From Oscillospiraceae bacterium (GTDB lineage: Bacteria > Bacillota > Clostridia > Oscillospirales > Ruminococcaceae), in contig JASGGY010000001.1 in assembly GCA_047602575.1 (NCBI GenBank), positions 142,413-206,412 on the forward strand: a DNA stretch of 64,000 bases. The letters are read 5' to 3'. The stretch's first letter is position 1. Every line of letters begins with the position of its first letter. Below, one piece after another: positions 40,378 through 53,572 of this stretch. A program made the position numbers and the translations under genes. The notes below the pieces were generated by a model that had not been told where the DNA came from, did no database searches, and saw only the letters and a list, made by a program, of their open reading frames with translations.

Positions 40378-40399
40378 TTTCCTACCCCTCAGAAAAATC

Positions 40400-40435
40400 A
40401 AACCGGCAGCATCGCTTTGATGCTGCCGGTTTTTG
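40400..40435 (+). terminator. intrinsic terminator of ilvC
   Basis: CCGGCAGCATC-GCTTT-GATGCTGCCGG followed by TTTTT. Confidence 0.8.
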
Positions 40436-40436
40436 A

Positions 40437-40814
40437 CTGTAGATAAAACCTCCCAAAGGGGGCGTTGCCCCCTCTGGACTCCCTCACCAAAGGGTACAAG
40501 TACCCTTTGGAAACCCGTCGTTTCAGGGATTAACTTTGTTTTGTTTAGCGGATTTGTGTTTTCGCTACTACTTCGTGATTTCACAGGGCGCTCGAAAAAA
40601 GAGTATAGACTTTTTATTCAGTCTGGACTAAATCCTTTCTCCCTAAAAAATCAAACCGGCGGCATTTGCGCTATATTCCCCATATAAGAATTAAAGTACA
40701 AGTAATTGACAAACTGAAAAAGACTACAAAACATAAAAAACAAAAACAAAGGGTTTCCAAAGGGGGCATGCCTCCTTTGGTGAGGGAGTCCAGAGGGGGC
40801 AACGCCCCCTTTGG
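40437..40814. mobile_element. MITE-like element with ~64-bp terminal inverted repeats built from two stacked hairpins (arms A6 and A7)
   Basis: Left end at 40453-40516 reads CCAAAGGGGGCGTTGCCCCCTCTGGACTCCCTCACCAAAGGGTACAAGTACCCTTTGGAAACCC. Right end at 40751-40814 is its reverse complement with few changes. The ~234-bp AT-rich interior has no ORF. Confidence 0.6.
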
Positions 40815-50676: not shown

Positions 50677-52470
50677 ATGGCAAGTCTGACAAAGAACCCG
50701 AATGTCAACAACTGGGTCACTGAAATGGCGGCTCTCACCAAACCGGACAAAATCGTATGGATCGACGGCAGCGACGAACAGCTGGCATCCCTGCGCGCGG
50801 AGTCAATTTCCGCCGGCGAGGTCATGGAACTCAATCAGGAGAAGCTCCCCGGCTGTCTTTATCACAGAACCAAGGTCAACGACGTTGCGCGCGTCGAGGA
50901 CAGAACCTTCATCTGCTCAAAGTCCAAGGCCGACGCGGGCCCGACCAACAACTGGTGCGACCCCGCCGAAATGTACGCAAAGCTCACCCCCATGTTCGAC
51001 GGCGTGATGAAGGGCAGAACCATGTATGTCATCCCGTATTCCATGGGACCGATCGGCTCGCCCCTTGCGAAAGTCGGCGTTGAGCTGACCGACTCGATTT
51101 ATGTTGTTCTGAACATGGACATCATGACGCGAATGGGCGCAAAAGCCTTCGACAACCTCGGCGACGTGTCTGACGACTTCGTAAGAGGTCTGCATTCCAA
51201 GGCTGACATTGATCCCGAAAATCGTTATATTGTGCATTTTCCGGAGGACAATACCATTTGGTCAATCAACTCCGGCTACGGCGGAAACGTTCTGCTGGGC
51301 AAAAAATGCTTTGCACTGCGCATCGCGTCCTTCCAGGGCAAGAACGAGGGCTGGATGGCGGAGCATATGCTCATTCTCGGCATCGAGAAGCCCGACGGCG
51401 ACGTGAAGTACGTGACCGCGGCATTCCCCTCCGCTTGTGGAAAAACCAATCTGGCAATGCTCATCCCGCCTGAGGTTTACACCAAAAAGGGCTATAAGGT
51501 ATGGACAGTCGGCGACGACATCGCGTGGCTCAAGCAGGGCGACGACGGAAGGCTCTATGCCATCAACCCCGAGAACGGCTTCTTCGGCGTTGCACCGGGA
51601 ACAAACGTGAAGTCCAACTTCAACGCACTCGAGTCCACCAAGAAAAATACGATTTTCACCAACGTTGCCCTGAACAACGACGACAACACCGTTTGGTGGG
51701 AAGGACTTGATAAGAACCCGCCTGTCAATGCCACCGAGTGGAAGGGCGCGGTCGTCAACGGCAAGGAGTTCTCCGCCGAGGGCAACAAGCTTGCGCACCC
51801 CAACTCCCGCTTCACCGCACCGGCAATCAACTGCCCGTGCATTTCTTCTGAATTTAACAACCCCAAGGGCGTGCCGATTTCGGCAATTGTGTTCGGCGGC
51901 CGCCGCGCGAAAACCGCTCCACTGGTGTATCAGTCCTTTGACTGGCAGCATGGCACATTCGTCGGCTCGATCATGGCTTCGGAAACCACCGCAGCCGCCA
52001 TCGGCGCAGTCGGTGTCGTAAGACGCGATCCCATGGCAATGCTGCCGTTCTGCGGCTACCACATGGGCGACTACTGGGCGCACTGGCTCGAAATGGGCAA
52101 GAAGCTCGGCGACAAAGCACCGCTGATTTTCAACGTAAACTGGTTCCGCACCGATGCTCAGGGACGCTTCATCTGGCCCGGCTTCGGCGACAATATGCGT
52201 GTGCTCGAATGGATCATCGACCGCTGCGAGGGCAAGGCTGACGCAGTCGAAACCGCTATTGGCTACGAGCCCAAGCCCGAGGACATCAACATCGAAGGCC
52301 TCAAGGAAGAGGGCATCACCCTCGACGTCGTCAAGGATCTCCTCGACGTTGACACCGCACTGTGGAAGTCCGAAGCAGACGGCATCCGCGAATTCTACGG
52401 CAAGTTCGGCGATAAGCTCCCCGCCGCAATGACCGACGAGCTGAACAAACTCGTCGCCCGCCTCGGCTAA
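50677..52470 (+). CDS. pck: phosphoenolpyruvate carboxykinase (GTP)
   Basis: 597 aa ORF with AAFPSACGKTNLAML (P-loop), HPNSRFTAP and GTP-type PEPCK sequence throughout. Confidence 0.9.
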   Translation: MASLTKNPNVNNWVTEMAALTKPDKIVWIDGSDEQLASLRAESISAGEVMELNQEKLPGCLYHRTKVNDVARVEDRTFICSKSKADAGPTNNWCDPAEMYAKLTPMFDGVMKGRTMYVIPYSMGPIGSPLAKVGVELTDSIYVVLNMDIMTRMGAKAFDNLGDVSDDFVRGLHSKADIDPENRYIVHFPEDNTIWSINSGYGGNVLLGKKCFALRIASFQGKNEGWMAEHMLILGIEKPDGDVKYVTAAFPSACGKTNLAMLIPPEVYTKKGYKVWTVGDDIAWLKQGDDGRLYAINPENGFFGVAPGTNVKSNFNALESTKKNTIFTNVALNNDDNTVWWEGLDKNPPVNATEWKGAVVNGKEFSAEGNKLAHPNSRFTAPAINCPCISSEFNNPKGVPISAIVFGGRRAKTAPLVYQSFDWQHGTFVGSIMASETTAAAIGAVGVVRRDPMAMLPFCGYHMGDYWAHWLEMGKKLGDKAPLIFNVNWFRTDAQGRFIWPGFGDNMRVLEWIIDRCEGKADAVETAIGYEPKPEDINIEGLKEEGITLDVVKDLLDVDTALWKSEADGIREFYGKFGDKLPAAMTDELNKLVARLG

Positions 52471-52482
52471 TCAAACCAAACC

Positions 52483-52524
52483 AAAGCGCACACAGCTCCA
52501 ATGCTGTGTGCGCTTTTTGCTTTC
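52483..52524 (+). terminator. intrinsic terminator of pck
   Basis: AAAGCGCACACAGC-TCCAAT-GCTGTGTGCGCTTT followed by TTGCTTTC. Confidence 0.75.
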
Positions 52525-52534
52525 GCTAAACGTT

Positions 52535-52880
52535 ATGTCAGGGGGCGCCGCCCCCCGACACCCCCTGCCAAAGGGTACAAGTACCCTTTGGAAACCCATA
52601 GTTTTTGTTATTATTCGTTTGTAATCTTTTCTGGTTTGCTAATTACTGTTACTTTGTGTTTTTATTTAGCAACAAAGCACAAATGCCGCCAGCTGATGGT
52701 TCAGACGGGCGGCATAAAGCGCATATTTAATGTATGTTTTTATAATGAAGAGGAGAAATCCAAAGTAAAAGTCTGCGCAAATTAAAATCGTTTTACAAAG
52801 TTATAATTACACAAACAAAGGGTTTCCAAAGGGGGCAGGCCCCCTTTGGTGGGAGGTGTCGGAGGGTGAAACCCTCTGAC
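52535..52880. mobile_element. MITE-like element with ~61-bp terminal inverted repeats built from two stacked hairpins (arms A9 and A10)
   Basis: Left end at 52537-52597 reads GTCAGGGGGCGCCGCCCCCCGACACCCCCTGCCAAAGGGTACAAGTACCCTTTGGAAACCC. The right end at 52820-52880, reverse-complemented, reads GTCAGAGGGTTTCACCCTCCGACACCTCCCACCAAAGGGGGCCTGCCCCCTTTGGAAACCC. The ~222-bp AT-rich interior is partly homologous to that of 40437-40814. Confidence 0.6.
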
Positions 52881-52891
52881 AAAGTGTAAGT

Positions 52892-53572
52892 TCAATACGC
52901 TTCTAGTCGGTAAATCGGTTTTCCCTCTGCAACAAATTTCGCTTCGTATTCGGTGATGATGTTTTCGGCGGTGAAGGGGCTGTTGTGCAGGTCGAGGGAG
53001 ATGTTTTTCAGGCGGAAACCGTTCTGGGAGAATTCGGCGAGGGAGAATTCGAACAAGCCCATCGCGTCGGTTTTCTGGTGAATTTCGCCGCCGGGGAGCA
53101 GCAGACCCTTGTAGATTTCAAGAAAACGCCGGTGGGTGAGTCGGTGAACAGCGTAGGTGTTTTTGGGGAACGGGCAGCTGAAGTTCAGATAAATCGTGCG
53201 CACCGACGCGGGCGGGATGTAGCAGGCGAGGTATTCCGCACCCCCGCGCAGGAAGCGCAGGTTGGGGATGTTCTCTTGCTCGGCGCGTTCGGCGGCGGAG
53301 AGGATCACGTTACTGCTCTGCTCGACGGCGAGGAAATTCGTGTTGGGATCGCGCTTTGCCGCTTCACAGGCAAACTGCCCCTTGCCGCAGCCGATTTCGA
53401 GTGCGAGGGGATTGGTGTTGCCGAACACCGCCGCGAGATCGATCAGTGTGCGCTCCGTTTCGGCGAGGCGATGATCGCGGTTGGGGCGGTCCATGTAAAG
53501 GATTCTGCCGCCTGTGTGTTCTAAGCGTGTGTCAAGGTTCTTTTTCTTTCTCATTCTCATGGTGCGCGTCAA
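52892..53572 (-). CDS. trmB: tRNA (guanine46-N7)-methyltransferase
   Basis: 226 aa ORF with LALEIGCGKGQF (SAM motif), ..IYLNFSCPFPK.. and ..LLPGGEIHQKTD. Confidence 0.8.
   Translation of the reverse strand: MTRTMRMRKKKNLDTRLEHTGGRILYMDRPNRDHRLAETERTLIDLAAVFGNTNPLALEIGCGKGQFACEAAKRDPNTNFLAVEQSSNVILSAAERAEQENIPNLRFLRGGAEYLACYIPPASVRTIYLNFSCPFPKNTYAVHRLTHRRFLEIYKGLLLPGGEIHQKTDAMGLFEFSLAEFSQNGFRLKNISLDLHNSPFTAENIITEYEAKFVAEGKPIYRLEAY

Follow-up and report, generated by a model that had tools for sequence, protein, structure and literature searches.

The 64,000-nt window analysed here is taken from contig JASGGY010000001.1 of an Oscillospiraceae bacterium (GCA_047602575.1, hereafter G000), whose genome of 2.72 Mb is assembled in 8 contigs and is 90.6% complete; plain positions are those of the window. 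The interval between the convergent genes pck and trmB is dominated by an imperfect inverted repeat (Table 1), for which a repeat finder reports arms of 89 nt at 52536-52624 and 52793-52881 that are 75% complementary. Each arm opens with two stacked GC hairpins, M1 and M3, after which comes GGAAACCC pointing inward. As single strands, the two 63-nt ends adopt an identical two-hairpin dot-bracket structure, with folding energies of -18.9 and -18.6 kcal/mol (z = -5.1 and -4.8; 0 of 200 shuffles were as good). The interior, of 206 bp, is 33% GC, compared to 55% across the window, and the sole notable interior ORF, of 94 aa (52501-52785), has no Pfam match. A scan across the region found no promoter-like site, and an Rfam search returned nothing at the gathering score, the best score being that of RF02937 (Clostridiales-2) at 20.2 bits against a cut-off of 58.6. 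The core sequence CCTTTGGAAACCC occurs 10 times in the window versus 0.07 expected, and a stretch reading GGCGGCAT..GCGC.ATATT is common to 52535-52880 and to a second paired structure at 40437-40814.

A first-pass annotation, made from the sequence alone, had described 52535-52880 as a complete MITE of about 346 bp. Much of that description stands. The paired inverted ends with their hairpin stacks are present (about 63 nt, with the same double-hairpin fold), as are the AT-rich interior lacking a credible ORF and the match to the interior at 40437-40814. The compensatory stem changes are also borne out, since the G-C to A-T difference between the M1 hairpins is real and M3 pairs covary across 131 copies. 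The classification as non-autonomous, non-coding transposon DNA agrees with membership of a large family (188 profile matches), and further copies bounded by terminal inverted repeats (TIRs) do exist elsewhere in the genome. What has to be given up is the 346-bp piece as the basic unit, which is instead an asymmetric element of about 196 nt, and the idea that 61-bp hairpin stacks are the ends recognised by a transposase, as 16-bp TIRs lie outside the stack.

Table 1. Coordinates of features at pck-trmB, of the second dimer in the window, and of comparison elements
Feature	Position	Strand	Details
pck (GTP-type PEPCK)	50677-52470	+	left flank
pck intrinsic terminator	52483-52516	+	14-bp stem + T tract, z = -6.4
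Left MITE unit	52520-52668	+	profile positions 5-156 of 196; nhmmer E = 2.3e-26
Left TIR, decayed	52520-52534	+	CTTTCGCTAAACGTT vs consensus CTGTAGATAAACCCT (profile alignment)
M1 outer hairpin, left unit	52537-52559	+	GTCAGGGGGCGCCGCCCCCCGAC
M3 inner hairpin, left	52568-52591	+	CCAAAGGGTACAAGTACCCTTTGG
M3 + AAACCC block, left unit	52568-52597	+	most conserved block of the family
GGAAACCC	52590-52597	+	inward-facing motif, left arm
AT-rich arm, left unit	52598-52668	+	profile alignment
Central hairpin	52683-52715	.	ATGCCGCC-N17-GGCGGCAT, z = -3.85
Right MITE unit	52761-52887	-	profile positions 15-144; nhmmer E = 1.6e-18
GGGTTTCC	52820-52827	-	inward motif, right arm; block with M3 = 52820-52849
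M3 inner hairpin, right	52826-52849	-	centre GGCCTGCC
M1 outer hairpin, right unit	52858-52880	-	GTCAGAGGGTTTCACCCTCCGAC, read on - strand
trmB	52892-53572	-	right flank
Full-length unit	40435-40624	+	profile 3-194; just 3' of terminator ~40395-40432
Partial convergent unit	40716-40814	-	profile 21-118; completes the second dimer of the window
Duplicated hairpin	C6:8660-8851		both sides: AATCCGCACCGAAGCGCGGATT
Duplicated hairpin	C3:1073310-1073499		left/right: AAACGGGTGTAACCACGCCCGTTT / AAACGGGTGTAACCACGACCGTTT
Duplicated hairpin	C5:157673-157883		both sides: 39-nt hairpin
IS ends, L157			1,509 bp; CAGTCTGTCGAAAAAG ... reverse complement CAGTCTGTAGAAAAAC
IS ends, L158			CAGCTTGTAGAAAAAC ... 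CAGCCTGTCGAAAAAG

A family of asymmetric units

The core with its hairpin marks about 160 heads in the 2.72-Mb genome. These fall into 29 inward pairs, defined as two heads facing each other within 1.5 kb, and about 100 singles. Single units share CAGACTGTAGATAAACCCT outward of the hairpins and, inward of GGAAACCC, an AT-rich arm of about 105 nt that ends in CTTCAGTCTGA; because the shared sequence extends to both sides of the hairpins, the unit is asymmetric and about 196 nt long. It is bounded by a 16-bp imperfect TIR, CAGACTGTAGATAAAC ... CTTCAGTCTG, in which the head is identical at 13 of 16 positions to the reverse complement of the tail (CAGACTGAAGAAAAAG); the tail-end repeat reads CTTTTTCTTCAGTCTG. 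Just inside the head lie one to three GC-rich hairpins, the innermost of the form CCAAAGGG-N8-CCCTTTGG and followed by AAACCC, and a small hairpin is found just inside the tail end. We describe here a family with the core CCAAAGGG..CCCTTTGGAAACCC, a stacked-hairpin head and abundant tail-to-tail dimers. A profile built on 51 single units finds 188 matches, about 72 of them near full length, that together occupy 25.4 kb, or 0.93% of the genome. The copies have diverged considerably, with a median pairwise identity of 69% and a maximum of 86%. The full-length unit at 40435-40624 follows the terminator of a putative ilvC gene.

Another subfamily has the same heads with a different arm, in which a locus-specific hairpin is followed by tandem heptads, (CTTCTGA/CCTCTGA)n, that resemble the unit tail end TTCAGTCTGA. 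Such arms are seen in the arrays at 11434-60490 of the window, and arm ends lie at C1:6094, C3:1258252, C7:407342 and C8:135330.

Inside 52535-52880 the profile search yields exactly two matches, convergent and both partial, so that the "346-bp MITE" resolves into two units lying tail to tail. The left unit is without its tail TIR and subterminal hairpin. Judged by position, the tail of the right unit probably extends to about 52701, and TCAGACGG (52701-52708, within the central hairpin) is likely to be its tail end; the central hairpin would then sit at the tail-to-tail junction. The terminal repeats of both units are decayed and agree with the consensus only to about 40-60%. In trmB, the final codons (..L E A Y stop, with TGA at 52892-52894) fall in a stretch, 52892-52906, that resembles the unit terminal repeat (CCGACTAGAAG, - strand), and the right unit may reach into the end of the gene.

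The M3 stem keeps 11 base pairs. Its pairs 9-16, 10-15 and 11-14 are paired in 99-100% of 131 genomic copies, with two to three pair types each (T-A/G-C, G-C/A-T/C-G and C-G/A-T, respectively), and the variation is packaged into four to five discrete versions, among them TACAAGTA (n = 52), GGCATGCC (n = 44), TCAATTGA (n = 10) and TGCATGCA (n = 8). Pairing has clearly been maintained, although only a small number of events account for it; such covariation could also be upheld by a structural or RNA role. Family-wide, for example at 40453-40516, the outer hairpin of type M2 (CCAAAGGGGGCGTTGCCCCCTCTGG) closely copies the inner M3 (CCAAAGGGGGCATGCCCCCTTTGG) located 9 nt away, and this tandem duplication inside the element may be a footprint of the same mechanism that duplicates target hairpins.

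Terminator hairpins as insertion sites

On either side of many single units stands a copy of the hairpin that forms the local Rho-independent terminator. The first copy ends directly before CAGACTG, while the second, which includes the T tract, begins directly after CAGTCTG(A). In 15 of 61 full-length units the flanks align with each other, abutting both ends, at a local alignment score of at least 12, a score reached in 0.5% of 610 control comparisons that paired the left flank of one unit with the right flank of another; only about a quarter of full-length units, then, still show the duplication. The duplicated segment measures 15 to 42 nt, in step with hairpin length. In the case of the unit at 40435-40624, 42 nt of upstream sequence (GGACTAA..AAACCGGCAGCAT), including about 30 nt upstream of the hairpin, are repeated right after the tail.

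Duplicated terminator copies sometimes differ from each other by changes on both arms, as at C5:157673-157883, in the C3:522070 region and at locus L132 of the related genome described below. One such example pairs GGCGCG/CGCGCC with GGAGCG/CGCTCC. Since changes on the two arms compensate, both terminator copies remain foldable.

Genomic context points to gene ends as well. By crude ORF-based gene calls, convergent genes flank 44% of units and 16% of intergenic regions overall, divergent genes flank 6% and 15%, respectively, and the head is directed toward the 3' end of a gene in 139 of 188 units. In tandem gene contexts the two orientations relative to the upstream gene number 56 and 37.

Two other routes to such flanks were considered and set aside. 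Insertion at TA of the Tc1/IS630 type is at odds with flanks that read T|CAG...CTG|A and not TA|...|TA. A Cas1/casposase-like or retro-element source of the long duplications is rejected as well, given that reverse transcriptase is absent and that the ends match a DDE IS family.

No hairpin or target duplication was detected around the whole pck-trmB dimer or around either of its two units, and with the terminal repeats decayed as well we infer its insertion history, including the order of the two insertions, from the family. The left unit probably landed on the pck terminator.

Relatives and the IS1182 connection

Among 40 relatives, the family was found only in the single congener (G001, 75% complete), and a strict pattern scan of the genomes of 185,579 species added one other MAG, so the range of the family hardly extends beyond this genus. 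That MAG, 'Bacillota bacterium OH_PFB_246' (G041), is an unrelated one; it carries the M3-AAACCC core at gene ends behind stacks of other GC hairpins and without the AT-rich arm (L131/L147/L148). In three further genomes of the order (L150, L151 and L153), single copies of a variant whose stem centre is shorter were picked up with a mis-spaced pattern (N8 for N10) that under-counts even G000 and therefore says little about distribution.

In the congener, units L136 and L137 are alike over the parts read, a short masked segment excepted, and lie at different loci, each between perfect duplicates of a terminator hairpin of 22-26 bp that is not the same for the two units. Units L132 and L133 likewise lie between duplicated hairpins, and the intergenic region of G000 that is orthologous to the site of unit L134 lacks this unit. 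A glycogen-phosphorylase-like gene has units in both species (L132 and C7:159025-159214).

The orthologous-site check proposed by the first-pass annotation gave a divided answer. In four other genera pck is followed by a plain terminator alone, but the sole congener has a unit there: at locus L032 it lies directly after a pck terminator of its own, different sequence, and the neighbouring gene differs, pck and trmB being on different contigs in G001. The presence of a unit right after pck in the congener indicates that the left half of the pair is old, and with trmB located elsewhere it is suggested to be older than the present neighbourhood. Units on the pck side in both species, like those at the glycogen-phosphorylase-like gene, could reflect either an insertion predating the split or a repeated strike on the same terminator. 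Exact-protein look-ups of pck and trmB for a strain-level empty site gave no match, and a metagenome scan found no close strain, the best trmB match being 64% at the amino acid level.

Could the units be kept for what they encode as RNA? A module that serves chiefly as a functional RNA or in regulation, be it as a small RNA, as an insulator of transcription or as a stabiliser of 3' ends, and whose spread was secondary would fit the two very stable hairpins (z about -5), the nearly 100% pairing through four to five stem versions and the position of units just 3' of genes. The core without its AT-rich arm in the unrelated MAG, and the short-centre variant that the mis-spaced pattern found in three genomes, point the same way. 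The absence of any Rfam family at threshold and of a promoter-like site in the region speaks against it, as do the occurrence of both orientations behind upstream genes, the decay of the copies to a median identity of 69%, and the few discrete alleles, rather than many independent compensations, that make up the stem versions. On balance a primary RNA function is very improbable, and we favor transposition as the source of the units.

The search for a transposase within G000 itself turned up little. No match was found there to DDE_Tnp_1 (PF01609), DUF772 (PF05598), Y1_Tnp (PF01797), IS110 (PF01548) or reverse transcriptase (PF00078); PF01797 was found in 6 of 14 control genomes. The IS1182-family model NF033551 has no match in G000 or G001, and the IS30-family model NF033563 none in G000, G001 or G041. 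Taken over G000 and G001, the searches revealed no gene of IS1182, IS30, IS4/IS5, IS110 or IS200 type and none for a reverse transcriptase. The only transposases detected in G000 are four rve (PF00665) matches of the IS3 family, with unrelated ends. Outside the known units, the left-end motif gave only chance-like matches in G000, and a self-BLAST of that genome for long repeats revealed no IS with the unit ends.

A multi-copy repeat of about 1 kb was considered as the autonomous copy and rejected, as it encodes a ComEA-like HhH protein and no transposase. It is present in three to four copies of 94-99% identity (C1:42684-43475, outside the window; C8:911-1702; the end of C3, 1281263-1282742), some of them at contig ends; its product is 263 aa long (HHH_3, TIGR00426), and one copy lies just downstream of the unit head at C1:42287. 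An exact duplication of 6,353 bp, 100% identical between C3:218450-224802 and C3:901749-908101, may be an rRNA operon.

Full IS1182-family transposase genes are found in 5 of 60 sibling genera of the same bacterial family (NF033551, 341-397 bits). The transposase ORFs of the two elements whose ends are clear, L157 and L158, score 389-397 bits on this model, and the termini of both agree with the unit ends at 13-15 of 16 positions (CAG.YTGTMGAWAAAS), at the exact ends of the element. A GC hairpin follows each of their terminal repeats, as it does just inside the ends of the unit, and the insertions resemble those of the unit too: L157 sits between terminator-hairpin copies (aaaccgcttgacatatttgtcaagcggt | IS | aaaccgcttgacatatttgccaagcggtttt) and L158 between two copies of a hairpin of about 38 nt. 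The matching ends, the hairpins and the hairpin duplication together argue that the unit derives from this IS1182 lineage in miniature form or travels as its passenger. The unit differs from these ISs in being without a transposase gene, in its length of 196 nt against about 1.5 kb, and in the stack of two to three hairpins at its head. In G000 the family looks extinct, since no matching transposase was found, no two copies are more than 86% alike, and both terminal repeats of the pck-trmB dimer are decayed.

Classical bacterial MITEs, such as Correia/NEMIS and RUP, and REP/BIME sequences are also small, abundant, intergenic, hairpin-forming and non-coding, and are often located at gene ends. 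Classical MITEs make short duplications of fixed length, such as TA; REP/BIME sequences lack terminal inverted repeats and are associated with RAYT. Unlike either, the unit duplicates a whole hairpin of variable length, and G000 has no RAYT. The proposal that the units are REP/BIME-like palindromes, spread by RAYT (Y1 HUH) or retained by the host to protect mRNA 3' ends, and not DDE products at all, would be in keeping with GC-rich imperfect palindromes that stand singly and in inverted pairs at gene ends, with the GTAG upstream of the outer hairpin, and with pairing upheld by covariation. It is scarcely credible in view of the missing Y1_Tnp gene, of the 16-bp TIRs, 105-nt AT-rich arm and flanking target duplications, all of which REPs lack, and of unit ends that match IS1182-family elements. 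The features by which a MITE is recognized are instead all found in this family: small, non-coding copies with TIRs and target duplication, dispersed and variably present between genomes, with an autonomous relative (in sibling genera).

Insertion into structured targets has precedent. IS1272 and TnSha1, of the IS1182 family, insert into terminator hairpins that have no primary-sequence consensus, and the hairpin is partly deleted with no duplication (Furi et al. 2016, PMC4923244, where Siguier et al. 2015 is also cited on the palindromic targets of the IS1182 family). Targeting of inverted-repeat structures has likewise been read as inverted-repeat replacement (Wan et al. 2017, PMC5678879). 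The unit shares with IS1272/TnSha1 and with L157/L158 a target that is a terminator hairpin structure without a sequence consensus; the unit and L157/L158, in contrast to IS1272/TnSha1, duplicate the whole hairpin rather than partly deleting or replacing it. A duplication comparable in length is cited for IS1630 of Mycoplasma fermentans, which duplicates 19-26-bp inverted repeats (Calcutt et al. 1999, as cited in PMC2853133). IS1630 differs from the unit in being autonomous and in belonging to another transposase family, IS30, of which none was found here. As structure-directed insertion and hairpin-length duplication are already known from these papers, an abundant IS1182-type MITE with hairpin duplication is a new example of known behaviour.

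Dimers and a model for their origin

Of the 29 inward pairs, 11 have an inner distance of 220-234 bp, and the pck-trmB pair, at 222 bp, belongs to this size class. Two groups of dimers, together spanning about 375-382 bp, can be aligned over their full length. The first (about 378-382 bp; C3:856992, C8:107147, C3:976873 and C3:862543) aligns at 76-82% and has a conserved central hairpin, GAGCTTGTGC..GCACAAGCTC, and the second, which includes 40437-40814, aligns at 68-76%. Full-length alignment at several loci indicates that some dimers have spread as units, as would be expected of a tail-to-tail structure bounded by two head ends with the same terminal repeat. The earlier view of inward pairs as single elements was therefore right in part: the pairs are a real class and some dimers of about 380 bp recur whole, but the pck-trmB dimer has no full-length match.

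These observations can be accommodated in a simple scheme. An IS1182-family DDE transposase, supplied in trans, would bind the terminal repeats and pick its target by DNA shape, namely the palindrome that a Rho-independent terminator forms and that is probably extruded into a hairpin or cruciform. The element would be joined at both feet of the palindrome, and after repair a complete hairpin would stand on either side of it, which gives a target duplication that equals the hairpin in length (15-42 bp or more). Both cleavage at the hairpin feet and recognition of a cruciform are steps that we infer. Every insertion would also create a new hairpin target beside the element, so that second insertions in the opposite direction could build tail-to-tail dimers, some of which would move on as elements of about 380 bp with long structured inverted ends.

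For 52535-52880, the most probable interpretation is that it comprises two old, convergent copies of a MITE of about 196 nt, of IS1182 type, inserted by hairpin-directed transposition (probability about 0.78). An unlikely alternative has the whole piece of about 346-372 bp as one MITE with structured TIRs of about 61-75 bp, which arrived as a single mobilised dimer. Its inner distance within the common size class, the recurrence of other 375-382-bp dimers at several loci with full-length alignments, and outer ends that are both head ends with the same terminal repeat would all suit such an arrival. The pck-trmB dimer, however, aligns with no other dimer over at least 70% of its length, no duplication surrounds the whole piece, its halves are only 75% complementary, and G001, where trmB is on another contig, has a counterpart of the left half behind pck. 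Given the missing full-length partner, the missing duplication and the counterpart of the left half, we interpret the pair as the result of two separate, old insertions that followed the two convergent genes, one each, and that meet at the hairpin.

A more speculative extension, which we regard as doubtful, is that hairpin-directed transposition builds its own structured ends. With each landing duplicating a hairpin and each hairpin offering a fresh target, rounds of insertion, excision and nested landing would leave behind both tandem hairpin stacks, such as M2 near M3, and tail-to-tail dimers that turn into mobile elements with structured inverted ends of about 75 bp, and the heads would then be a record of landings and not transposase-binding sites.

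Shape-directed targets with hairpin-length duplication have been documented for few elements (IS1630, along with the hairpin targeting of IS1272), and the present case adds many copies together with identified autonomous relatives. The L157 and L158 ISs and the near-identical units of G001 form a pair suited to studying how an IS1182 transposase reads a hairpin. For genome annotation, duplicated terminators around an AT-rich insert of about 200 bp constitute a usable footprint, and inverted pairs should not be called single elements with long TIRs before single units have been looked for. In this genome, about 1% of the sequence and the hairpin stacks at many gene ends are explained as the relics of one transposon family and not as host signals. 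If the stacks do record past landings, the host may nonetheless have kept them as transcript 3'-end structures.
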